From a virus: DNA of 21,969 bases. The stretch lies in the IMG/VR virus record IMGVR_UViG_3300028299_000002, positions 1-21,969 of that record, one strand, 5' to 3'. Position numbers and translations under genes: made by a program. Below the pieces are notes generated by a model. The model saw only the letters and a program-made list of their open reading frames with translations, did not search any database and was not told where the DNA came from. Shown piece after piece: positions 1-17,149 of the stretch. Position 1 is the first letter of the stretch. Every line of letters begins with the position of its first letter.

Positions 1-200
1 TTGCGAAGTCCCCAATACGGCGGACTTGTGACACACATATTGAATACACCGTCCGGTATTCTTGCTAATGTTTCAAGAGAATCACCATGTAGTATTTTAT
101 CATGGAAAGAAGATGCCAGCGAACCATTGTCTTGAGATAACGGCTTGAGCTGTTCTCCGTTTTTAGGTTTTTTGGTTATATATGGTGCTTGCTGTTCCAT
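1..200 (-). CDS. N4/N6 DNA methyltransferase, N-terminal part (runs off window edge)
   Basis: Hand translation from ATG 200: MEQQAPYITKKPKNGEQLKPLSQDNGSLASSFHDKILHGDSLETLARIPDGVFNMCVTSPPYWGLR. It has the GDS and motif IV SPPY pattern of beta-class MTases. The start lies in the loop of attC-like site 1. Confidence 0.9.
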   Translation of the reverse strand, partial: MEQQAPYITKKPKNGEQLKPLSQDNGSLASSFHDKILHGDSLETLARIPDGVFNMCVTSPPYWGLR

Positions 201-248
201 TTTGTCACTTCAAATTAATTCGCCGTATCTCAGACATAGTCGTTCGTA
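118..248 (+). repeat. attC-like site 1
   Basis: R'' AGCGAAC, spacer CATTG, left arm TCT[T]GAGATA[A]CGG; right arm CCGTATCTCAGA, spacer CATAGTC, R' GTTCGTA. The arms pair with two extrahelical bases. Confidence 0.85.
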
Positions 249-255
249 GTTCGCA

Positions 256-1098
256 TCAAAAGAGAACCTGCTGAGCCTGTTCAATTTCAAGGCGTTGTTT
301 AGATTTTTCGTAATATTCCAAGTTTTTTTCGATTACTATAAAATTCCGCTTTGACCTATGCGCCGCTATTGCCGTTGTCCCAGAACCGCCAAAACCGTCG
401 AATACCAAATCACCCTCGTTTGTATAAGTGCGAATGAGATATTCAAATAAACCGACTGGCTTTTGGGTTGGGTGAAGTCTAATTTTATCTTGAGTGTAAT
501 ATAAAAGGGTTGTTGGATACCCTTCAAATTCTTGAATATACGCAGCGTGACTTTTTCGCACTATTGCGAATGACTTACCATAATTACCATAATCTATACC
601 AGACCGCTTTCTACTTGATGGACGAAGTCCTTGTGGGTTGTATAACATCCTCCTGTTTGAACAATTCGCCGTTGTTCCCTTTGAGAATATTAGGATATTT
701 TCGTGCATCTTTACTGCTTTATTTTTAGCATTCATTTTATCTCCCGCCGTATTCTTTCCCCATATCCACTCATATTTGAACATCTTTAGATTGCTCATTA
801 CCAGAAAACTTGTGAACGGCTGGCTTCCGGTCAGCACTACCACGCCAGTCGGCTTTAATATCCGAAGTCTTGTTTCCCAGTATAGATTCAGGTCTATCTT
901 CACATCCCATTCGCACGCAGTTGTGTTATATGGCATATCCTCTAAAATCATATCGACGGATTTGGCTTCTATCTGTTCGCAGAGAGTGAAGGAATCGCCG
1001 TTGTGGATAGCATTCAAAGAGAGGCGACTACGAACCAGCGTTTGCAGATAACCCTTAGAGCTGTCCGACTCTTGCTGGTTTTTGGTTACTATTGGCAC
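256..1098 (-). CDS. N6/N4 DNA methyltransferase (beta class)
   Basis: Motif IV DMPY, HPTQKPVGL and motif I DGFGGSGTT. Likely GTG start at 1098 behind GGAGG (ORF track starts at TTG 1110); both starts lie inside attC-like site 2. Confidence 0.92.
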   Translation of the reverse strand: MPIVTKNQQESDSSKGYLQTLVRSRLSLNAIHNGDSFTLCEQIEAKSVDMILEDMPYNTTACEWDVKIDLNLYWETRLRILKPTGVVVLTGSQPFTSFLVMSNLKMFKYEWIWGKNTAGDKMNAKNKAVKMHENILIFSKGTTANCSNRRMLYNPQGLRPSSRKRSGIDYGNYGKSFAIVRKSHAAYIQEFEGYPTTLLYYTQDKIRLHPTQKPVGLFEYLIRTYTNEGDLVFDGFGGSGTTAIAAHRSKRNFIVIEKNLEYYEKSKQRLEIEQAQQVLF

Positions 1099-1156
1099 TT
1101 TCGCCTCCAATGTGACATTAGTAAATTATCGGGTATCTGATACGCCATCGTTCTGT
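1029..1156 (+). repeat. attC-like site 2
   Basis: R'' TACGAAC, CAGCG, TTT[G]CAGATA[A]CCC ... GGGTATCTGATA, CGCCATC, R' GTTCTGT. Extended R'' GCGACTACGAAC complements GTTCGTAGTTCGC at 242 with one bulge. Confidence 0.85.
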
Positions 1157-1157
1157 A

Positions 1158-1367
1158 TCAGAGCGGATTTTGCAACAATTCCCATATTTTTTGAGTACTT
1201 ATTTGTACCGCATTGAGTTGCGGTTTTTTATTATCAGTATCGGCGGTAAATTTTACAAGACAGGCAATTTTACGTTCACCCAACATTTTCCCTAAATTAA
1301 AAATATCGTCATCGTTTTCGGGTACAAAAACAATATCATTCTCTTTTTCATTACACGTTACTTTCAT
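1158..1367 (-). CDS. hypothetical protein (cassette cargo)
   Basis: ORF 1158..1427 in the track; ATG 1367 (MKVTCNEK) follows a purine-rich leader and is the more likely start. Confidence 0.6.
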   Translation of the reverse strand: MKVTCNEKENDIVFVPENDDDIFNLGKMLGERKIACLVKFTADTDNKKPQLNAVQISTQKIWELLQNPL

Positions 1368-1404
1368 CTTTTTCTCTCTTTCTGCTCTGACCAGCCCTTC
1401 GGGT

Positions 1405-1493
1405 ACAGAACCAGCAGATTGAGCCAATGCTTAGAGCACTGGCATGGTTAATATTTTTGATTGTTTTTGCATGGCTCATCTTTATCGTTCTAT
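1405..1493 (+). repeat. attC-like site 3
   Basis: R'' ACAGAAC, CAGCA, GAT[T]GAGCCA[A]TGC ... GCATGGCTCATC, TTTATC, R' GTTCTAT. TACAGAAC complements GTTCTGTA at 1150. Confidence 0.85.
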
Positions 1494-3058
1494 TCGTCAT
1501 CCCGCCCAAGATTCTTGATGGCTTGCATTATCGGTAAAACGACCTGCGGAACTATCGCATTTCCTAAACATTTAAGTCTGTCCACCCGCTTGGGTATCCC
1601 ATGAGCCACTCGTGGAACTCCATTTTCCCAATCATCATCCCAATTAATTAAAACAGGATTGGCATTTCCCCAGCAATATCTCTTCCACATCTCCTGGCTG
1701 TGCTGTGCCAAAAGTCGTGACAGTGTTTGCACAATGTCTGTATATTTTTTTGTTCGTTGTTTGTTATGTCTTGGTCTATATGGTGCGCCTGTAGGCTCGT
1801 TGTTTTCCGACAAGCCTCGCACGTCTTTTTCAGGTGTTTCCTCGCTCGCCAACTGTAACCATGCTTGGTAAGATTTATCTTCTTTGAGTTTGCACAAGTA
1901 AGTGAGCAATATTTCCTTTTTAGAAACGTGTTGTAATCTTCTAGGCGTCCGTTGAATCTTTTTCTCGTTATTAAAATTCCACAATGCTGACAATATTTCA
2001 CGGGTGTCTTTTTTCTCTTTGCCATCGTTCATATCTCCTCCGTATATCACATTAGTAAATATACACTCATGGGATATAAATGTCAAGTCTATATTTCTGT
2101 CCAACCAGGAGGAAAACCCATTAATAGTTCCACCCACGTCGGGTTCAATTGGCCAGTTTGATGTGTCGATTTTTTCACTTCCTCCGCCAATATCTTTCCA
2201 CCCTTCCCGTTTGGCCTTGACCCAGGGGTTCCAGCTCTGGGTGTCGGCCACATTTTCACTATGTCGTTCAAGTTGTTTTGATAGCCCTCCCGATTTACTC
2301 TTTTTGCTTGGCCGCTCCGATAATCCCGGCTTTGCGGTGTTGGCATTAGTTTTACATATCTCGCCAGTCCTATCGAACCGTCCGTACCCTTCCCGTTTAT
2401 TTTCCGCAAAGTCCCCGTTTTGTTCACTTTGAACTTGTCGTTTTTTCCAATTATTCCCCCCGTGTCCGCATCGCTTTTCACGGGAGTTGGCAACAATCCA
2501 GACTCTGTTCCTCCGATGTCCTGCACCGACACCCGCAGCCGGTATAATAAACGATTGGCAGGAGTATCCGATAGAGTCCAGGTCAGCAAGCACGTCGTCG
2601 AGTGCCAATTTGACGATTCCAGCAACATTTTCGCCAATAACCCAAGCGGGCCGGGTTTCCGATATAACTCTAAGCATCTCCGGCCAGAGATAGCGGTCAT
2701 CTTCTTTGCTTTTTTGCTTCCCGGCAACGCTAAAAGGCTGGCAAGGGAATCCCCCTGTAATAAGGTCAACTGTTCCGCAGGTCTTTCCGTCATAGGTTGT
2801 GATGTCGTCATGTATTGACACTCCTCTAAAGTTTTTCTGTAATACTTTCTGGCAGTATGGGTCTTTTTCTACGAATGATACTATTTCCAGACTATCTCCC
2901 CAGCACCATTTAGCAGCCAAAGCAAATCCGCCTATCCCTGAAAATAAATCTAACATTCTGAAAGGGCGGGATGAAATAGAACCATTAGATTGAGCCAACG
3001 ACGAAAGCTGTTCCTTTTCCATCGTTTCCGCCCTTTCACTGGTTATAGTTTCATTCAT
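1490..3058 (-). CDS. dcm: C5 cytosine DNA methyltransferase, main (alpha) frame
   Basis: Motifs I DLFSGIGG, IV GGFPCQPFS, VI ENV, VIII HRRNRVWIV and X RLKCLGNAIVPQV. The ATG is inside attC-like site 4. Confidence 0.9.
   Translation of the reverse strand: MNETITSERAETMEKEQLSSLAQSNGSISSRPFRMLDLFSGIGGFALAAKWCWGDSLEIVSFVEKDPYCQKVLQKNFRGVSIHDDITTYDGKTCGTVDLITGGFPCQPFSVAGKQKSKEDDRYLWPEMLRVISETRPAWVIGENVAGIVKLALDDVLADLDSIGYSCQSFIIPAAGVGAGHRRNRVWIVANSREKRCGHGGNNWKKRQVQSEQNGDFAENKREGYGRFDRTGEICKTNANTAKPGLSERPSKKSKSGGLSKQLERHSENVADTQSWNPWVKAKREGWKDIGGGSEKIDTSNWPIEPDVGGTINGFSSWLDRNIDLTFISHECIFTNVIYGGDMNDGKEKKDTREILSALWNFNNEKKIQRTPRRLQHVSKKEILLTYLCKLKEDKSYQAWLQLASEETPEKDVRGLSENNEPTGAPYRPRHNKQRTKKYTDIVQTLSRLLAQHSQEMWKRYCWGNANPVLINWDDDWENGVPRVAHGIPKRVDRLKCLGNAIVPQVVLPIMQAIKNLGRDDE
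1648..2025 (-). CDS. HNH endonuclease nested in the dcm gene
   Basis: CQHC...YCSLTC zinc motifs and CEAC...AHHIDQDITNNEQKNIQTLCKHCH HNH motif; own GGAG SD and promoter. Confidence 0.85.
   Translation of the reverse strand: MAKRKKTPVKYCQHCGILITRKRFNGRLEDYNTFLKRKYCSLTCANSKKINLTKHGYSWRARKHLKKTCEACRKTTSLQAHHIDQDITNNEQKNIQTLCKHCHDFWHSTARRCGRDIAGEMPILF
2058..2086 (-). promoter_or_regulatory. sigma70-type promoter for the nested HNH gene
   Basis: TTGACA (2086-2081), 17 nt spacer, TATATT (2063-2058), directly after the stop of the alternative-frame ORF. Confidence 0.65.
2089..2811 (-). CDS. overlapping alternative-frame MTase polypeptide (PTP repeats + motif IX-like segment)
   Basis: Nested ORF with three PTP repeats (LLPTPVKSD, LMPTPQSRD, MWPTPRAG) and terminal LNPTWVELLMGFPPGWT, the motif IX-like block missing from the main frame. 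Confidence 0.75.
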   Translation of the reverse strand: MTTSQPMTERPAEQLTLLQGDSLASLLALPGSKKAKKMTAISGRRCLELYRKPGPLGLLAKMLLESSNWHSTTCLLTWTLSDTPANRLLYRLRVSVQDIGGTESGLLPTPVKSDADTGGIIGKNDKFKVNKTGTLRKINGKGTDGSIGLARYVKLMPTPQSRDYRSGQAKRVNREGYQNNLNDIVKMWPTPRAGTPGSRPNGKGGKILAEEVKKSTHQTGQLNPTWVELLMGFPPGWTEI

Positions 3059-3085
3059 CGTCGTGCCTCATCTTTGTCGTTATAC
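2976..3085 (+). repeat. attC-like site 4
   Basis: R'' ATAGAAC, CATTA, GAT[T]GAGCCA[A]CGACGA ... TCGTCGTGCCTCATC, TTTGTC, R' GTTATAC. AATAGAAC complements GTTCTATT at 1487. Confidence 0.85.
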
Positions 3086-3140
3086 GCTCGTCGCTGCGCT
3101 CCCGAGCGTATAATGGCGGGCGCCTGAGCGTCGTTTTGGC

Positions 3141-3266
3141 CTATATTGGTTTAAGATGTTTTATAATTTCTTCAAGTTGTCTAACCCTAATTTCTAAAGA
3201 TTCTATAAGTTGATTTAAATCTCCTATCTCGTTATAAATTTGTTGAATGGAATCTGAGTCACTCAT
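3141..3266 (-). CDS. small coiled-coil hypothetical protein
   Basis: MSDSDSIQQIYNEIGDLNQLIESLEIRVRQLEEIIKHLKPI, behind a GAGGA SD; heptad pattern. Confidence 0.55.
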   Translation of the reverse strand: MSDSDSIQQIYNEIGDLNQLIESLEIRVRQLEEIIKHLKPI

Positions 3267-3353
3267 TTTTTCCTCTTTTCTTTTAAGCGCCAAAACTCCA
3301 TCGGCACTTGTTTTTCGTGTTAAAATCATCTGTCAATTATCGCTTGCGACGAC

Positions 3354-3415
3354 GTATAACCAGCGCATGGAGCATGAATCATCTGCGATGATTGCTCATG
3401 CGCCCGCCATTAGAT
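3354..3415 (+). repeat. attC-like site 5 (short, 59-be size; core ATT instead of GTT)
   Basis: R'' GTATAAC, CAGCG, CAT[G]GAGCA-TGA-ATCATC, loop TGC, GATGAT-TGCTCATG, CGCCCGCC, ATTAGAT; 62 bp. GCGACGACGTATAAC complements GTTATACGCTCGTCGC at 3079 with one bulge. Confidence 0.8.
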
Positions 3416-3461
3416 GCCTCACAAGATTTTACTGTCAAGTGAGGCATCCGTTCACTGTGGT

Positions 3462-3977
3462 TTAGTGTAGTTTAAATGGACTTACGACAATTTCCGGTTC
3501 AAGATATACCGGGCGCGGTTCGTTTGTTTCAGGATCAATCATCATCAACCAAGTTGCAGAAGATGATGTTGGCATATATAGACCATTCGGATCGGCTTGC
3601 GGAATTACTTCTGGGAAAACACCAGACCAGTCTCGCCCAATCATTTTATCTGCTTCGACAATTTTCATTGGATTAGTATATTGTGCCGAAAAGGGAACGC
3701 CAAACCCAATACATTTACCGATAAACATGAGTTTGCCTTGATAGTCAGATTTTATATAGGCATAGCATACCAAATCCTCTTTATCACATAGTTCAAAAAC
3801 CATTTTCATTAGTTTCTTTTGTTGATAATTGACAAGATTTGGCAAACCGACCTGACGATTGATTTCATCAAGGATTTGATTTGTTTGCGCGGTTTGACGT
3901 GTTTCTGCGGTCGGTGTTGTTTCAAAACAAGCGAAAAGAAAAAGACATGCGAAAAGAATTACGATTAGTTTTTTCAT
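3462..3977 (-). CDS. putative lipoprotein
   Basis: MKK + hydrophobic stretch + LFAC lipobox; PQADPNGLY motif. Confidence 0.8.
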   Translation of the reverse strand: MKKLIVILFACLFLFACFETTPTAETRQTAQTNQILDEINRQVGLPNLVNYQQKKLMKMVFELCDKEDLVCYAYIKSDYQGKLMFIGKCIGFGVPFSAQYTNPMKIVEADKMIGRDWSGVFPEVIPQADPNGLYMPTSSSATWLMMIDPETNEPRPVYLEPEIVVSPFKLH

Positions 3978-3978
3978 C

Positions 3979-4314
3979 TTAATAACCTCTTATTTTAGTT
4001 AGAAATTGTTGCAGTTTTATTTCTCGGATTTGACCAGCGTCAAACTCCGCAAACTGCATCCGTACCAAAGAGGCAATAGCCTCCTTGTCAGCAAGCGTTT
4101 CAGCAGTATTATATTCGTAATAATACTTTCCCAAATCTTGTACTTTCCCATGCACATAGGATTTGGTTTCCTCAAACACTTCGCGTTTGGCGTTCTCATA
4201 CTTCGGACGGAAGAACTTGAACATCTCCAATCCGTAGAAATTGAGAACGAAAATTGTCACCAAAAGAAGGATAAATCCTCCGACAATCAATCCGATCAGT
4301 TTACCTTTACTCAT
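3979..4314 (-). CDS. membrane-anchored hypothetical protein
   Basis: N-terminal TM helix (LIGLIVGGFILLLVTIFVL) followed by a helical domain; 1 bp from the lipoprotein gene. Confidence 0.8.
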   Translation of the reverse strand: MSKGKLIGLIVGGFILLLVTIFVLNFYGLEMFKFFRPKYENAKREVFEETKSYVHGKVQDLGKYYYEYNTAETLADKEAIASLVRMQFAEFDAGQIREIKLQQFLTKIRGY

Positions 4315-4359
4315 TTTTCTGTCCTTTCTATAATAGGGTTAAACATTGTTTAATGAGGC

Positions 4360-4473
4360 ATCTAACCCGCGTTTGCAGATAACGAGGTGAGCTGTTCACC
4401 TTGCTTGGATTCTTCTGGTTTTGTCATAGTCTCATTCATGTTTCACCTCGTATCTGATACGCCATCGTTCGCT
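4360..4473 (+). repeat. attC-like site 6
   Basis: R'' ATCTAAC, CCGCG, TTT[G]CAGATA[A]CGAGGTGA ... TCACCTCGTATCTGATA, CGCCATC, R' GTTCGCT. TGAGGCATCTAA is a perfect 12-bp complement of TTAGATGCCTCA at 3410. Confidence 0.87.
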
Positions 4474-5027
4474 GCTGCTGTCCACTGAATAGCCATTGCT
4501 TCTGCTATACCTGGATAGGTTCTGCTTCTCTCTTTCCACCTGTCTTCGCTTGGTGGCATTTTGTGTATTCGGTTTTCACGCCCATCCACCACATTAGTTG
4601 GTTTCAATAAAGGAAGATTTTTAAGCCACAAACAGGTTGCCTTTGTTTCGCCGTGTCCGAATTGCCAAGGCTGGATTATCTGGTCAGGTTTTCTGATTCT
4701 GGATGATATTATACTTATCGGGTTTTCGATTGCTATTTTTGGAATTGGAGAGTTCATCAAAAGTCTGACAAATTCAAGTGCCTCTGCCTGTTCCTCTTGT
4801 TTATCCTTGAACCACCTTGCACCGGACACGGCCAAGTGTGTACAAGGTGGATGGAATATCCCTAAATCAAATTGTTCTCGCTTTAATAATTCAAATATAT
4901 CCTCTTGAAAGTGCCATTCGGAGTTACCTTCTGTCGGTAACAGGTCACATGAATAGGCTTCGTGTCCTCTCTTACGAAATGCCTTTGTTACTATTTGACT
5001 AAATTCACACCCCACAATAACTCTCAT
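4443..5027 (-). CDS. short phage-type cytosine DNA methyltransferase
   Basis: RVIVGCEFS, SCDLLP, HPPCTHL (PC catalytic dipeptide), ENP, QPWQFGH. ATG 5027 overlaps the HNH stop (TAATG); the C-terminus reads into site 6. Confidence 0.8.
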   Translation of the reverse strand: MRVIVGCEFSQIVTKAFRKRGHEAYSCDLLPTEGNSEWHFQEDIFELLKREQFDLGIFHPPCTHLAVSGARWFKDKQEEQAEALEFVRLLMNSPIPKIAIENPISIISSRIRKPDQIIQPWQFGHGETKATCLWLKNLPLLKPTNVVDGRENRIHKMPPSEDRWKERSRTYPGIAEAMAIQWTAAANDGVSDTR

Positions 5028-5545
5028 TATATTCTCCATGTTTTGTTATTAGCAATTCTTGTTATTGTTGGTCTTGATACTCCATATTCCTTTGCAAGCA
5101 TTTTTTGAGAGATGGTTGTAAGTTTTTTTCTTATTTCTTGTACTTTGGATGGAGTTAATTTAGCGCCCCCATTTCGAGTATTCCAGGTTCCATTTTCAAT
5201 CTTATCATTTTCGTTTTCTGTATATGTTCCATAAGATAAATTAGATATATGGTTGTTTGCAGGATTACTATCTAGGTGTCTTATAACATTTCCACTTGGT
5301 CTTTTCCCAATAAAGAATTGTGCAACAAGATTGTGTATTCTAACTGTTTTTACTTTCCCACAACCATTACATAAATGAACTTGAAGATAGCCCCTTTTGT
5401 CAGAATAAAATGGTAAATCCTTCCATACATCTTTCGCAATAAACCCTTTATACGAAGCATGTCTTTGCCATCGACTTTGTAATTTTCCAAAATTAGAAAT
5501 ACGATATGCTGGAAATTCTGGAATAATTTTAAATTTTTCTTTCAT
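5027..5545 (-). CDS. NUMOD4-HNH homing endonuclease with C-terminal HTH
   Basis: YRISNFGKLQS (NUMOD4), RIHNLVA...IRHLDSNPANNHISNLSY (HNH) and AKLT...LAKEYGVSRPTITRI (HTH). Confidence 0.9.
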   Translation of the reverse strand: MKEKFKIIPEFPAYRISNFGKLQSRWQRHASYKGFIAKDVWKDLPFYSDKRGYLQVHLCNGCGKVKTVRIHNLVAQFFIGKRPSGNVIRHLDSNPANNHISNLSYGTYTENENDKIENGTWNTRNGGAKLTPSKVQEIRKKLTTISQKMLAKEYGVSRPTITRIANNKTWRI

Positions 5546-5583
5546 GGTAAATGTCCCCTATATTAAACACACGTACACGGCTT

Positions 5584-5612
5584 AATATAAGATAAAGGAT
5601 TAACTTGTACAA
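5584..5612 (-). promoter_or_regulatory. putative sigma70 promoter for the NUMOD4-HNH gene
   Basis: TTGTAC (5612-5607), 17 nt spacer, TATATT (5589-5584); overlaps inverted repeat TATATTAA/TTAATATA at 5559-5589. Confidence 0.5.
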
Positions 5613-5615
5613 GCA

Positions 5616-5696
5616 TTATCTTACATCGCCTTTATAGTGATTCCCTGGAATCTCAGTGTCCAGCAGATCGCAAGACCATGCGTTCCACCCCTTTGC
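5616..5696 (-). pseudogene. fragment of a paralog of the 4443..5027 methyltransferase
   Basis: Translates to AKGWNAWSCDLLDTEIPGNHYKGDVR*, which aligns by eye with RKRGHEAYSCDLLPTEGNSEWHFQEDI. Confidence 0.75.
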
Positions 5697-5765
5697 CTGG
5701 ATTCTGCGGGTTTTATCATAGTTTCATTCATGTTTCACCTCGTATCTGATACGCCATCGTTATGC
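5695..5765 (+). repeat. attC-like site 7, truncated (loop + right arm only)
   Basis: Near copy of the right half of site 6 (TCATTCATGTTTCACCTCGTATCTGATACGCCATCGTT identical), R' GTTATGC; no left arm or R''. Confidence 0.8.
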
Positions 5766-6146
5766 ACAATTCAAATGTGTTTCATGGTCTACCACATATA
5801 CATTTATCCCACGAAACATAGTACGTGATTTATAATTCGCTTCTTCATACGGCACAAGACAAATTTCATCATATTCTTGTGATAGTTTTTTATACTCTGA
5901 CCTTCCGAGATAAATTGAAGTTGGTTTTTTTCCTGTTTTAGATTCGTATCCACACAATAAATTTATTAATCTATCGTGCATAACCATTGGCTGCACCGAA
6001 CAGCCAGAGCTGTTCGATAGTATTTTTTCAACTTCACCTATTAAATCATCACATAGTTCTGGAGTCAGTGCGTGGTGTCCTTTTTTATCAGATATTGAAT
6101 AAAATAAATCTCCAAGTTCCTCAACTTGCTTGTCTGTAATTTTCAT
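5760..6146 (-). CDS. hypothetical protein, paralog of 6184..6483
   Basis: ATG 6146 behind AAAGGA inside the loop of site 8; shares LCxYExKTGxKPTxxYxG and YVVxxxxxLxCA with its neighbour. The stop codon lies in the R' core. Confidence 0.75.
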   Translation of the reverse strand: MKITDKQVEELGDLFYSISDKKGHHALTPELCDDLIGEVEKILSNSSGCSVQPMVMHDRLINLLCGYESKTGKKPTSIYLGRSEYKKLSQEYDEICLVPYEEANYKSRTMFRGINVYVVDHETHLNCA

Positions 6147-6189
6147 CGTCTCATTCCTTTCTGGCTGTCGGTGAGCCTGGTCGTTAGGC
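5978..6189 (+). repeat. attC-like site 8 (canonical arms, very long loop)
   Basis: R'' GCATAAC, CATTG, GCT[G]CACCGA[A]CAGCCAGA ... TCTGGCTGTCGGTGAGC, CTGGTC, R' GTTAGGC; 212 bp. GTGCATAAC complements GTTATGCAC at 5759. Confidence 0.88.
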
Positions 6190-6483
6190 GCAATCAAGAT
6201 AGCTATCTGAATTAACAACATATATATATGCACCGCAGTACATCGATCTCATTCTCTCACATCCACTTTCATCAATTTCATTTATTATTGGATTTAATAT
6301 TCTTAATATTTCTTTATTTTCATACTTGCCAACATATAATTTCGTTGGCTTTATTCCGGTTTTTGCCTCGTAATTACATAGTATTTCCAGTATTTTGTAA
6401 TGTAATTCGCGCCTAACCCTTGGCTTCACGTCAACGCACGGAGCTGTGGTTTTCTCATCAGGTTCATTGTTTTTAATAGTCAT
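6184..6483 (-). CDS. hypothetical protein, paralog of 5760..6146
   Basis: AAGGAG SD and ATG inside site 9; stop TAA within the core at 6184-6186. Confidence 0.8.
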   Translation of the reverse strand: MTIKNNEPDEKTTAPCVDVKPRVRRELHYKILEILCNYEAKTGIKPTKLYVGKYENKEILRILNPIINEIDESGCERMRSMYCGAYIYVVNSDSYLDCA

Positions 6484-6540
6484 TTCGTTCTCCTTTATAT
6501 TTGTTATTTTTTACGGCGTGCCTCATCTTTGTCGTTAGAA
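6411..6540 (+). repeat. attC-like site 9 (chimeric arms; last site of the array)
   Basis: R'' GCCTAAC (GCGCCTAAC complements GTTAGGCGC at 6183). Right arm CGTGCCTCATCTTTGTCGTTA is identical to site 4 but does not pair with its own left arm GCTTCACGTCAACG. Confidence 0.7.
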
Positions 6541-6618
6541 AGCGGCAGGAAGATTTGTGGTCTCCCCACCATTCGGATATACGGAGTCAATATTTATTAA
6601 TAATACTTTCATGTCGGT

Positions 6619-7125
6619 TCAATTCAGTTTATCAGTATCAATTACCGTTTTACTGGCTTCCTGAATCAGACGCTTTTCTTCTGTTTTAATCTTCTGTATA
6701 TCTGATTTATCATTCCTGTATGTCCTGATATTTATATCGTCTAATGTGAATACCATAAACGGTTCAATGCTATATTCCAATTTTATCAATTGATTTGATT
6801 CACTTATTATTTTGAATCGTTTCCTTACAATATCAAGATATGTAAACCGTGCATGATCATAATACTCCATGTTTATATCCAGTTCTCCGGTTTCAGTTGA
6901 TTCAAGTATTTTCCGTAACCATACTGTTGATAATGCCTGATCAAACATTAACCCTGCCGCTCCATTAATATTTGCTTCCTCCGGATTACTAAATTTACTG
7001 CTAATTGCAACATTATAGGCACCCAGGACCAGTAACCAATCCGGGAGTTTATCAGAATAGATATCAAAATTTTTGTAAAAATAATCAATCAAATACATTT
7101 CTGTTAATATGATTTTCTTTTCCAT
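6619..7125 (-). CDS. hypothetical protein
   Basis: 168-aa ORF coupled to the upstream gene by a TAATG overlap. Confidence 0.7.
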   Translation of the reverse strand: MEKKIILTEMYLIDYFYKNFDIYSDKLPDWLLVLGAYNVAISSKFSNPEEANINGAAGLMFDQALSTVWLRKILESTETGELDINMEYYDHARFTYLDIVRKRFKIISESNQLIKLEYSIEPFMVFTLDDINIRTYRNDKSDIQKIKTEEKRLIQEASKTVIDTDKLN

Positions 7126-7268
7126 TATGACCCGTTCTTTTTGTTATACAATTCCGGTGGTACTATTTTTCTGCACTTTGGATTTGGACATTTAATATCA
7201 CCCTGTTTATTCGGGACGAGAAACTTCGTTTTAAACGTTGCGCCACATGAACATGTTATCTTAGCCAT
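7125..7268 (-). CDS. small zinc-ribbon protein
   Basis: Not in the track: MAKITCSCGATFKTKFLVPNKQGDIKCPNPKCRKIVPPELYNKKNGS (CxC...CxxxxC); overlaps both neighbours by a few bases. Confidence 0.65.
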   Translation of the reverse strand: MAKITCSCGATFKTKFLVPNKQGDIKCPNPKCRKIVPPELYNKKNGS

Positions 7269-8019
7269 TTATCCCTTCTAAAAGTTTTTCTATCTTTTCA
7301 ACAATCACCTTATATTTTCCACCATCTCCCTGGTTCACAATTAATTCCTCAAGTCGTTCAACTACATTACTTGAATCGACCCATCTATTTGAATGAGTAT
7401 GGATAAGACTTGATAGCTGTTGATATATTTGATTTTCTTTTTTATATCGTTCAAACAGCTCTGTATTAATCTCTAATCGACTTAATTCGGAGATAATCTT
7501 GCTGTTTACTTTATAGGCCAGGTTCCTGGTACTGAGTTTATTATTCAACCATTCTGTGAAATATTCTCTGCTCGAATTGAAGAATGGATATGGTCTGTCT
7601 TCTAATCTCGAAAATATGATGTATAGGTATAAATCAGCCGGTATATCAACATTTCTAAACAGACTTTTCTTCTTTGTATAGAATGATGATTTTTCCTGAT
7701 TATAGTATATCAAACCAACTTGCGGATCAATCTCAGATATATCAATTATTCCCGGTGGACACACAAAGTTGAACCGATGACAATATGGTAAATAGCCAGC
7801 CCACTTTTCATCGGCCAAGAAGTCATTGCGATTGACTTTGATTTCATATCCGGTGACACAGGGGTGCGCCCAACTTTTTTTAATTGCAACAGCATCAATT
7901 TTTAGCAATCCTGTTCCCCAGGATCGACCGGTCTTTACTTCAGTCAAAAAGTAATCCTTATAACTATCACCGTGTTTCTTTGCCAACGCACCCTTGATCT
8001 GACTTGCAGTCACGTTCAT
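7261..8019 (-). CDS. MmcB-like PD-(D/E)xK nuclease
   Basis: EVKTG...IDAVAI...GYEIKVNRNDFLADEKWAGYLPYCHRFNFVCP pattern; start at a TAATG overlap at 8019. Confidence 0.75.
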   Translation of the reverse strand: MNVTASQIKGALAKKHGDSYKDYFLTEVKTGRSWGTGLLKIDAVAIKKSWAHPCVTGYEIKVNRNDFLADEKWAGYLPYCHRFNFVCPPGIIDISEIDPQVGLIYYNQEKSSFYTKKKSLFRNVDIPADLYLYIIFSRLEDRPYPFFNSSREYFTEWLNNKLSTRNLAYKVNSKIISELSRLEINTELFERYKKENQIYQQLSSLIHTHSNRWVDSSNVVERLEELIVNQGDGGKYKVIVEKIEKLLEGING

Positions 8020-8939
8020 TATTTCACCACCGGGTATTGATGCCATTCTTTCCCGTCCAATAAATGACCAGAATTCTTTTTACCAACTTTGATTAATTCC
8101 TTCATTCCAGATCCGTATATTCCATCCTCACAGGCATATGTTCCCCACTGTTTAAAGAAAAACGGAATATTTGCTTCTATACATTGATCTCTCAATGACC
8201 GTACCCAATCCGGTTTCATCGGTCGTGATCCGTGACCAGATTCACCGCCGCAGATTATCCAATTGATAGGATTATGTGTTATAACGTATTTCAACATCTC
8301 TCTATTTACTTTTAATAATGCGGATTGATTACCACAAAATATATCACCGGTAAGTGCATTTATATTATATTCACTGTTGAATGGAATATTCATATTCAAT
8401 TCACTAAGCATTGGCTCTACACTCACAAAGCGCACCGCCGCCGGTATCTGCATTAGAACAGGAATACGCTGATCAGCTGTTTTCTGATTCTCGACCGTCA
8501 CACCCACCCAAATATGTTTCCATTGTGGTTGAGCAAAATTCTTATAATTGAATTCCAACATTCTCTCTGGCCGCTTGGTTAATATCAAGTAAGTATGGTG
8601 GTCCGCACCATACATGGGATTTGTCATATAATCGAATACTCTATCAATCAATTCTACCGGTATATCGGGATGAAACAGATCACCCATATATTGAATCCCG
8701 ATTCTTCTAGGTTTCTTCCAACTACTGAGTTTCTTCAATTCTTTATGAACCAGACGATACTCCATCTTCCGGTCATCAAAAGGGATATGATTGCCAAACC
8801 TGTTATTCATCGATTCGGCCCAACAATTTTTACAACCTTCGGATATTTTGGTACAGTGATATCCTAAACCAGAACTTCCCTTGATTTTTGTCTGGATCGG
8901 ATTTATAGTCTCATCCAGGTATTCTATTTTTGTACTCAT
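8019..8939 (-). CDS. phage Gp37/Gp68 (DUF5131) family protein
   Basis: CTKISEGCKNCWA, MGDLFH, LTKRPER, GVTVENQ, FVSVEPML, WIICGGESG and FFFKQWG. Confidence 0.92.
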   Translation of the reverse strand: MSTKIEYLDETINPIQTKIKGSSGLGYHCTKISEGCKNCWAESMNNRFGNHIPFDDRKMEYRLVHKELKKLSSWKKPRRIGIQYMGDLFHPDIPVELIDRVFDYMTNPMYGADHHTYLILTKRPERMLEFNYKNFAQPQWKHIWVGVTVENQKTADQRIPVLMQIPAAVRFVSVEPMLSELNMNIPFNSEYNINALTGDIFCGNQSALLKVNREMLKYVITHNPINWIICGGESGHGSRPMKPDWVRSLRDQCIEANIPFFFKQWGTYACEDGIYGSGMKELIKVGKKNSGHLLDGKEWHQYPVVK

Positions 8940-12486: not shown

Positions 12487-12511
12487 TTTATTCTTTTACC
12501 TTTAGATTTAG

Positions 12512-12876
12512 TGGAGATGGAGGGAGTCGAACCCTCGTCCGAAATGGATCATTCTATAACATCTACAGGGTAGTTGTCTTATTTCAATACTTAAAACGAT
12601 TTAATCAGACAACAGACAATCAATCGTTCGCGTACACCTGATAAGCCTCTGGTGTCCGTACCGGATTTTGTCTAACACTTATTTTATAGCGTAGGAAAGA
12701 CAAACACGCCACCCGCTTAGACCTAGGCCCGTGCAGGAATTCCGTACTGTGGAACAGCCGGAATCATAAACGGCATAATGCCAGTTAATTTGTTTAAGGC
12801 TTTTTTATCGAAGCCCTGCCTCAAACTTCGCCTGCCATCATAAAATTCACACATCCCGTCGAAACCATTCATCCCC
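12512..12876 (-). ncRNA. ssrA: tmRNA
   Basis: 5' GGGGATGAATGGTTTCGACGGG and 3' GGACGAGGGTTCGACTCCCTCCATCTCCA. The acceptor stem has G3-U70 and discriminator A. pk1 is CGAAG/CTTCG + AGGC/GCCT. Resume context TTAACT|GGC, tag frame 12782..12723; 365 nt. Confidence 0.95.
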
Positions 12877-16010: not shown

Positions 16011-17149
16011 TTCTTCACCTTGTAGAATTTGGTCATGGTTGATATTTTCGGCGTACCAAGTTCGTCAATGACCTCATCGATCATATCTTTCAGTTTCAGT
16101 CGTTTCATTACCTTTTCGAAATTGGTTTTGGTACATCCGAGCATACCCCAGACATCGGGTTTGGAAATGCCTTTAGATATCAGAACATTCACCAGGTTTT
16201 CGACATTATTGAACTCATAGGAATTACTGACACTCTGGCGATATTCCTGATCGCCAACCGGTATTGATCCGTGGTTCTGGAGATATATTTTCAGTAAACT
16301 TTCAACCGCCTTTCCCTTTTCCCTTAATGCAATGAATGTTTCACCCAATGCGATAGCTTCGAATTCATTCGTTGGCATGATAATATCCTCAACATCCAAA
16401 GCCCGTTTCATTGCAGGGCAGCCATCACGTACCGGACAATATTCACACCGTGAACAGAATGTGGCCTCATATTCTCTCGCAGCTTCAATTTCAGCAGCCT
16501 TTTTCTGAATCCATTCCGTGATATTCTGATATTGCTCAGGATAAACCGTGAACTCCTTTTGAACGCCATAGCGAACAAATTCATATATCACCCGGATTTC
16601 CGTTGTAATATTGAACTCTTTTGCAACCAACATCGGATATATCCTGGTTTGCAGGCTGTTTTCCAGCTCATCATCCGATGGGATAACGTGATTGGTCTTA
16701 TAATCCTTTATCACCGGTATATCCCGAATATCAAGACGGTCGATAATTCCTCGACAAAATACGTCTTTTGAATCCCAGGATTTATCATCTGTAATCATAA
16801 TTGAATTGAAATTTTCATCCACGGCCAGCCTTTGTTCCAGGTAGATGTTATTCCGATCTTGAATATTTTGAGTAGGTGCCCAATACCGGAATATATCCGA
16901 ATATTCATCAATCACATCAAGCGGTTCAGTACCGCAGTGTTTCTTGATAAGCGGCTCGATCATTTCAATATCGGTTGGTTGATCGGTATCTAATAGATGC
17001 TGATCATATTTGTGAGCAAGCCGGTGAAACAAACCGCCACCCATCATTACACTGACATCCTTTTGTTTAATTTTATCCTTGTAATGAGCAGCCCAGGAAA
17101 ATTGACAATCATCCCAATGTGAAAATCTGTTTGGTGAATATGGACGCAT
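16007..17149 (-). CDS. PD-(D/E)xK exonuclease, RecB/Cas4-like
   Basis: GIIDRLD..IKDYKT, QxxxY (LQTRIY), N-terminal Cys and C-terminal CEYCPVRDGC. Confidence 0.88.
   Translation of the reverse strand: MRPYSPNRFSHWDDCQFSWAAHYKDKIKQKDVSVMMGGGLFHRLAHKYDQHLLDTDQPTDIEMIEPLIKKHCGTEPLDVIDEYSDIFRYWAPTQNIQDRNNIYLEQRLAVDENFNSIMITDDKSWDSKDVFCRGIIDRLDIRDIPVIKDYKTNHVIPSDDELENSLQTRIYPMLVAKEFNITTEIRVIYEFVRYGVQKEFTVYPEQYQNITEWIQKKAAEIEAAREYEATFCSRCEYCPVRDGCPAMKRALDVEDIIMPTNEFEAIALGETFIALREKGKAVESLLKIYLQNHGSIPVGDQEYRQSVSNSYEFNNVENLVNVLISKGISKPDVWGMLGCTKTNFEKVMKRLKLKDMIDEVIDELGTPKISTMTKFYKVKK

Follow-up and report, generated by a model that had tools for sequence, protein, structure and literature searches.

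The 21,969-nucleotide (nt) stretch of viral DNA analysed here (the window) forms the beginning of the 90,580-nt contig IMGVR_UViG_3300028299_000002 from IMG/VR (GC content 38.8%). Positions 118-6540 carry a row of attC-like recombination sites of the kind found in integrons, separated by short genes, and this interval probably represents the right end of a large cassette array of integron type that has no integrase, a cluster of attC sites lacking integron integrases (CALIN), located between the replication and packaging genes of a phage. The sites are genuine attC, and their family is also found in complete intI-linked integrons of uncultured bacteria. Cassettes in the phage have a reversed layout: each gene lies on the bottom strand of the attC and starts at or within its own site, and the loop is remodelled to hold a start codon and, in about half of the sites, a Shine-Dalgarno (SD)-like motif.

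All nine sites proposed by the first-pass annotation of this DNA are present (W1 to W9, Table 1), and eight are recovered by a covariance model (R1), all on the + strand and with E values of 1e-7 to 1e-23. R1 was built from a 12-site alignment (A1), on which a hand-drawn structure of 22 base pairs was tested, and it gives no match in the 50 kb of the contig outside and between the arrays; the ninth site, W7, is a right half-site. The anatomy is as first described. Read on the top strand, the 5' half comprises AAC, 3-4 unpaired nt, a 5-bp stem, an extra base, a 6-bp stem, an extra A and a 4-6-bp stem, and the 3' half comprises a loop of 20-170 nt, the complementary arm, 5-6 unpaired nt and GTT. 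On the top strand the two extra bases are in the 5' arm with a spacing of 7 nt (columns 23 and 30 of the alignment; A in 11 of the 12 sites), the inner one being an almost invariant A, and the spacers are unpaired. Extra-helical bases on the '' arm and an unpaired central spacer are attC features, and their polarity here is that of the intI-linked sites described below. The overall form is the imperfect palindrome R''(..AAC)-L''-loop-L'-R'(GTT..) of 57-141 nt; phage-type sites (see below) measure 62-139 nt, with two more of 196-220 nt that have coding loops. AAC and GTT are invariant in 30 of 32 phage-type sites, and the cores of the R-box consensus RYYYAAC/GTTRRRY are kept, with flanking bases that often depart from RRRY.

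As in attC sites generally, it is the structure and not the sequence that is kept by covariation. In the 12-site alignment the partners pair in 82% of cells, compared with 25-43% when they are slid, and double-sided changes are seen in 16 of the 22 base pairs; the covariation score is 0.427 versus 0.04-0.16 for slid partners, and none of 500 shuffles attains 0.427. Folding of the bottom strands, a check suggested at the outset, gave the bottom strand a slight advantage over the top in each of the four sites tested.

The junctions between cassettes carry a distinctive signature. The first-pass annotation had remarked that each R'' pairs with the R' of the previous site and not with its own, and this is borne out at seven junctions in the window, including the one at which the R' of half-site W7 (GTTATGCAC) pairs with the R'' of W8. 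The complements, read by eye and with the core included, are 9, 8, 8, 8, 12, 9 and 9 nt long; the third extends to 16 nt with a 2-nt indel and the fourth to 15 nt with a 1-nt indel. Across the phage-type arrays the perfect complement between R'' and the previous R' reaches a mean of 5.6 nt beyond the AAC/GTT core (at least 4 nt in 22 of 26), against 0.9 nt for R'' and its own R' (1 of 32) and 0.8 nt for unrelated sites (38 of 938). Bacterial-type arrays, a set that includes one array adjoining an integron integrase, give means of 5.1, 1.5 and 1.7 nt for the same three comparisons. R'' therefore pairs with the R' half at the 5' end of its cassette, as in integron gene cassettes, and each cassette spans the TT of one R' to the G of the next. 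Such a signature is the scar that would be expected from a circular cassette with a paired R box inserted at G/TT.

Further arrays were found in viral, metagenome and metagenome-assembled genome (MAG) contigs using a degenerate left-arm pattern; an exact 20-mer of the shared right arm had no match in viral contigs. The arrays are of two kinds, phage-type and bacterial-type, and the latter includes an integron on contig G005:C22 of a bacterial MAG (locus L272). Its intI gene (TIGR02249, 413 bits against a cut-off of 265, with PF00589 and a SAM-like domain) is on the minus strand and divergent, with eight R1 sites on the + strand directly downstream; sense open reading frames (ORFs) end immediately ahead of the sites, and the array is flanked by cellular genes. 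That the window sites fall in one covariance-model family with these intI-linked sites, and share their cross-junction signature, upholds the original assignment to integron-type attC. The top strand, first deduced from the bulges, is fixed in the same way: the + strand of the model is the coding strand in the intI-linked array and, since its cassettes are in sense, the + strand of the window is the attC top strand. The L272 integron is also like the phage arrays in its R''/L''/L'/R' arms, the AGCTGTTC motif and the arm with extra bases, and unlike them in having intI, a conserved non-coding loop, sense genes and uniform sites. Bacterial-type sites are all 139-143 nt in length, compared with 62-220 nt for phage-type sites, and the arms are nearly identical between the two (Lb and W1, for example, match L245 8126-8265). 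No cassettes common to the phage and bacterial pools were found beyond distant methyltransferase homologues with 24-26% identity.

Other IntI homologues lie beside arrays at loci L257, L274, L138 and L262. In L274 and L257 the gene for the IntI homologue runs along the attC top strand and is not divergent, an arrangement that recalls the inverted-intI integrons described in spirochaetes. The MAG to which G005:C22 belongs contains at least seven intI genes or fragments, and a full-length DnaA homologue (DnaA_N, Bac_DnaA and DnaA_C; L272 12918-14846, + strand) lies between two attC matches of its intI-linked array. The MAGs in which these sites occur bear the labels Neomarinimicrobiota (six MAGs), Cloacimonadota, Bacteroidota or unclassified. 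MAG G006 likewise bears intI, and the Neomarinimicrobiota MAG G007 contains a fragment of it. Sites of the same family, together with an antisense N6_N4 methyltransferase, also occur in a 70-kb viral contig with a GC content of ~57% (L007), and because its base composition is so different the attC family spans distant phages.

Cassette genes normally lie on the top strand and read toward their attC, and nearly all phage-type cassettes do the opposite. The longest ORF is antisense to the top strand in all seven scored cassettes of the window, as the first-pass annotation had claimed, and likewise at L169 (7 of 7), L010 (5 of 5) and L002 (4 of 4), as well as L184, L163, L221, L173 and L253. Sense orientation prevails at L272 (7 of 7), L151 (6 of 6), L089 (5 of 5), L231 (4 of 4) and L245 (7 of 8). 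The loops differ correspondingly. A bottom-strand start codon is present in the loop of 26 of 27 phage sites, 15 of which have an SD-like motif, and is missing from 25 of 64 bacterial-type loops. What the loop encodes is either the beginning of the gene, ~25 codons, or a short leader ORF terminating at R'' just ahead of the gene's own start: the loop ORF is fused to the cassette gene, running more than 30 codons into it, in 13 of 27 phage sites versus 2 of 64 bacterial-type sites, and ends within a few nt of R'' in 11 of 27 versus 23 of 64. Phage loop ORFs of the second kind often end at the TAG of GGTTAG, just before the ATG of the gene itself. A conserved N-terminal targeting peptide, similar to the capsid-targeting sequence of T4, was considered for the GAACAGCTC block within the loops and rejected; its reading frame varies between sites (EQL in W1, W4 and W6, NSS in Lb and W8), so that conservation is at the nucleotide level and not of a peptide.

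Given these loops, the structure could have been selected mainly in mRNA, where it would present or gate the ribosome site and start codon, whether for translational coupling or as a processing site of RNase III type, with recombination being historical and inactive in the phage. The location of SD motifs and ATG codons in the loops agrees with this, as do stop codons of upstream genes in or next to the 5' arm (that of the gene at 4443-5039 falls within the W6 arm, 4 nt ahead of the leader ATG) and leader ORFs that end at R'' beside the next start; the covariation is equally consistent with RNA pairing. We nonetheless consider it unlikely as the main account, as it leaves the complement between R'' and the previous R' unexplained, and the extra bases stay on the arm that carries them in bacterial sites, whose mRNA is the other strand. 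Moreover, related phages differ in cassette content at one genomic slot, indicating that turnover is recent. A role in mRNA and recombination as DNA are not mutually exclusive: mRNA of the phage arrays corresponds to the bottom strand and can therefore fold into the same hairpin, for which a role in translation is plausible.

Table 1. Sites and genes of the array at positions 118-6540 of the window and of the cassette at its left edge.
Feature	Position	Strand	Remarks
attC W1	118-248	+	R'' AAC 122-124; G/TT 242/243; R1 103.9 bits, E 9e-23; fold
W1 loop	ATG at 200	-	start of methyltransferase running off contig start
N6/N4 DNA methyltransferase, N-terminal part	3-200	-	leader and ...TSPPYWGLR motif (translation); C-terminal part probably L001 17840-18580
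N6_N4 DNA methyltransferase cassette gene	256-1098	-	PF01555, E 6e-32; GTG start with GGAGG in W2 loop
attC W2	1029-1156	+	AAC 1033-1035; G/TT 1150/1151; R1 92.6 bits
Cassette X, 69-aa ORF with own ATG	1158-1367	-	99% identical copy at L001 9968-10231
attC W3, short loop	1405-1493	+	AAC 1409-1411; G/TT 1487/1488; R1 74.8 bits
C5 cytosine DNA methyltransferase cassette gene	1490-3058	-	PF00145, E 6e-46; ATG in W4 loop
attC W4	2976-3085	+	AAC 2980-2982; G/TT 3079/3080; R1 89.4 bits
62-aa cassette gene	3141-3329	-	ORF; no functional assignment
attC W5, minimal, 62 nt, no coding loop	3354-3415	+	AAC 3358-3360; A/TT 3409/3410; R1 39.2 bits, E 4.5e-7; fold z -3.3
Two-gene cassette	3462-4314	-	171 aa (phrog_24725) and 111 aa (phrog_26268); no functional assignment
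attC W6	4360-4473	+	AAC 4364-4366; G/TT 4467/4468; R1 96.6 bits
25-aa leader ORF in W6 loop	4439-4362	-	stop is GTTAG of R''
DNA methyltransferase cassette gene (phrog_757)	4443-5039	-	E 5e-71
HNH_3/NUMOD4/HTH_3 homing-endonuclease-like gene	5027-5545	-	adjoins broken site W7
W7, right attC half (loop, L', R')	5695-5765	+	G/TT 5759/5760; lacks R'' and L''; 93% identical to 4401-4469
128-aa cassette gene	5760-6146	-	starts in enlarged W8 loop, reads through arm
attC W8, 170-nt coding loop	5978-6189	+	AAC 5982-5984; G/TT 6183/6184; R1 52.7 bits
99-aa cassette gene	6184-6483	-	SD and ATG in W9 loop
attC W9, rightmost site	6411-6540	+	AAC 6415-6417; G/TT 6534/6535; R1 68.8 bits

The cassette genes encode chiefly DNA methyltransferases of several classes, at least nine among about 17 on the contig, which would probably protect the phage from host restriction enzymes. 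The window contributes two N6_N4, one C5 and one phrog_757 methyltransferase, along with an HNH homing-endonuclease-like gene and six small unassigned genes; the contig end contributes two more N6_N4 enzymes, one C5, one Dam enzyme and one Methyltransf_11 fragment. The corresponding profile matches are to PF01555 (three or four), PF00145 (two), PF05869 (Dam), phrog_757 and the Methyltransf_11 fragment. The phrog_757 gene has an 89% identical copy in L221, in which homology begins 5 nt from G/TT. Its start is overlapped for 13 nt by the homing-endonuclease-like gene, which looks as if it had been inserted into an attC or a cassette start. In the 522-aa C5-methyltransferase ORF the PF00145 match spans only residues 33-284, and a 125-aa HNH ORF (1648-2025, minus strand) lies wholly within it in another frame.

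A second array is located at the other end of the contig (L001, in which position 8476 is contig position 80476). It contains 7-9 further sites, at L001 9220-11283 and 17125-17833, and a half-site at about 11540, bringing the contig to about 17 sites in two arrays. A 32-nt AACC...GGTTA repeat (CAACCTTGCAAGGATAGCATATRCACTGGTTA) stands at the left (top-strand 5') edge of each L001 block, at 8476-8507 and 16891-16922 (contig 80476 and 88891), with a GTTA flank that is complementary to the first cassette's R''. The repeat, which occurs in none of the other loci retrieved, may represent a minimal attC or a docking site akin to attI; no attI-like match was found between it and the intI-attC spacer of L272. 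One site of this array, Lc, has a 200-nt coding loop whose ORF runs out of frame into a methyltransferase fragment without N-terminal motifs (L001 9305-9975), which may reflect a frameshift or the decay of a cassette.

CheckV rates the contig, which is classed as linear, as 58% complete. Its last gene (L001 17840-18580) is a C-terminal N6_N4 methyltransferase piece, in which PF01555 is matched over profile positions 60-220, and the R' after site Li matches the R'' of W1 (GTTCGCTG) across the opposite contig ends. Because the N- and C-terminal fragments are of the same methyltransferase family and the R' and R'' match, both ends probably lie in one cassette, of which some tens of codons are absent. 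The CheckV figure notwithstanding, the genome could be almost complete, and circular or circularly permuted.

Nearly all long ORFs are on the minus strand. Replication genes, including those for a DnaD-like loader and an exonuclease, lie to the right of the array, with a portal gene close to the opposite contig end; from the gene order and common strand it is plausible that the array is part of an early operon. Scans of positions 1-7300 for sigma-70-type promoters and terminators gave counts not above those in shuffled sequence, and thus neither support nor oppose read-through transcription. The replication-gene cluster also includes a full-length transfer-messenger RNA gene (12509-12876, minus strand; RF00023, 126.5 bits, E 1.6e-49), the only match in an Rfam scan of the window, Rfam being without an attC family. 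A megablast search of positions 1-7000 against deposited phages returned a single 90-nt match, and there is thus no close cultured relative.

Comparison of the phage-type contigs points to exchange at the cores. The first-pass annotation had named breakpoints unrelated to GTT as part of the outcome that would tell against it; the comparison does not bear this out, as homology breaks coincide with the GTT cores. Among near-identical segments shared between contigs, 7 of 26 ends of high-scoring segment pairs lie within 5 nt of the R' G and 4 of 26 within 5 nt of the R'' C, a class of positions amounting to some 1-2% of the sequence. L002 contains sites 93-97% identical to W4 and Lb that have unrelated genes to either side, the alignment extending exactly from AAC to GTT (the W4 match, at ~97%, is L002 1027-1136). 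The arms of W8 recur in L010 and L163 with a different loop, and L169 shares with the window a flanking replication-region gene (69% identity) and has different cassettes. Near-identical hairpins (93-99%) between unrelated genes in different contigs could also arise if the hairpins were portable regulatory modules shuffled by phage homologous recombination, their likeness to attC being only ancestral; exchange of cassette X independently of its own attC, the chimeric W9 and the lack of an integrase on the contig suit this too. It is an improbable explanation, however, since homologous exchange of modules would not leave cassette-specific complements of 8-16 nt split across each gene, a signature equal to that of the IntI-linked arrays, and the breakpoints cluster at 3-nt cores and are not spread over the ~100-nt modules.

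Several observations weigh against a simple account of these arrays as canonical IntI substrates. About half of the sites read GTTC/GAAC and not GTTRRRY, and folding z scores are modest, -1.4 to -1.8 in the big-loop sites (W5 fares better), the weak energies being due to the large loops. R1 gives no match on Polaribacter phage P12002L, although attC2 of that phage is recombined by IntI1; R1 is silent there because it is specific to the attC family of the window. Cassette X is 99% identical in the two arrays of the contig while its own attC differs, and the identity stops 3 nt past R'' and starts 17 nt before the upstream G/TT; in L002 a different ORF is enclosed by the same extended inverted repeat. 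W9 is chimeric, built from two attCs, with an L' equal to that of W4 and a poorly paired stem. These exchanges, together with the homology ends at R'', do not fit canonical bottom-strand chemistry, and as canonical IntI exchange keeps R'' with its site, some other process also acts, the candidates being top-strand recombination and homologous or microhomology exchange between arms. Recombination is itself read from sequence comparison, with no recombinase linked to the phage, and at 58% completeness a phage integrase could lie off-contig.

With at least two clustered attC sites and no nearby integron integrase the array has the make-up of a CALIN; of the components of a complete integron (intI including the IntI-specific domain, attI and the Pc promoter), neither intI nor attI was recognised. 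The first-pass annotation had placed the recombinase further left or in the host. The first option fails, as the array continues at the other end of the contig, and the PF00589 and TIGR02249 profiles have no match anywhere in the 90.6 kb. Neither profile has a match in a related 70-kb contig rated 79% complete or in any phage-type locus, and no phage-type locus has an IntI homologue. The second option, in which IntI is provided in trans by the host, is the simplest, and we infer it because no tyrosine recombinase was found in the contig or its relative, because the attC family is shared with bacterial integrons, and because IntI1 is active on phage attC sites (PMC9892861). A phage recombinase of another kind, encoded on a missing part of the genome or not of the tyrosine type, would accord with the completeness rating and with exchange at R'' besides R', which hints at chemistry beyond the canonical IntI reaction, but is the least probable explanation given these negative searches and contig ends that appear to lie in one cassette, so that little may be missing.

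Clusters of attC sites in phages had been described as rarely reported, which needs correction. Qi, Rajabal, Ghaly, Tetu and Gillings (2023; PMC9892861) reported 17 CALINs in virulent and temperate phages, with methyltransferases among the cargo, and five of six phage attC sites tested were recombined into attI1 by IntI1. These arrays share with the present one the lack of intI and the methyltransferase cargo, and differ in having 2-4 sites each. In that study the TJE1 and PH101 arrays are characterised as typical bacterial cassette arrays, and neither antisense cargo nor coding loops are described; the loops found here carry a start codon, frequently with SD-like motifs and N-terminal codons. 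Our literature searches found no published description of the reversed layout or of start codons in loops. Folding of P12002L places a compact site at ~30003-30060, with the extra base on the + strand 5' arm and the adjacent methyltransferase on the minus strand, and this methyltransferase cassette is thus also backwards.

Two other systems bear comparison. The PeSLs (promoter-early stem-loops) of T4-type phages, a subject of Arbiol et al. in 2010, are reportedly promoter-carrying mobile regulatory cassettes shuffled by homologous recombination. Like the present sites they are short conserved stem-loops with expression signals, situated between small variable genes in a plastic region of the phage genome; unlike them they are said to have no AAC/GTT cores, extra-helical bases or split-R-box scar. 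In class 1 integrons, attC hairpins and short ORFs borne by attI are said to affect translation of cassettes, as in the work of Jacquier et al. in 2009 and Hanau-Bercot et al. in 2002, so that there too recombination sites double as translation signals for neighbouring cassette genes. In that case the transcript is reportedly of the top strand and the effect falls on the downstream cassette, whereas in the phage it is of the bottom strand and the site provides the start for its own gene.

As all cassettes are co-directional with the leftward genes of the phage, we predict that the array is transcribed as one read-through message in which every cassette supplies its own translation start. The predominance of methyltransferases of several classes suggests that the cargo would serve as an exchangeable anti-restriction kit, and exchange would be carried out during infection by a host IntI acting on folded bottom strands. 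The broader proposal, which we judge as apt to be right as wrong, is that phages hold their own pool of reverse cassettes, in which the attC bottom strand has been remodelled into a translation-initiation region, and trade anti-restriction methyltransferases by way of the host IntI. If so, a cassette dropped anywhere in a co-directional phage operon would be expressed at once, with neither a promoter nor attI.

Integrons are viewed as a bacterial device for storing and shuffling promoterless genes. In a recent preprint, chromosomal integrons are reported to be stocked with anti-phage defence cassettes (bioRxiv 10.1101/2024.07.02.601686), and the phage arrays, if the proposal holds, would be the phage-side counterpart. 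The arrays lend themselves to testing, since the sites are defined, there is a candidate IntI and a dependence on host intI is predicted. As the coding loops show, the bottom strand of an attC can take on a second function, which bears on how cassettes are built. A phage with about 17 sites of the same family as the integrons of its likely hosts, and with inverted methyltransferase cassettes, suggests that both sides of the arms race use one recombination machine.

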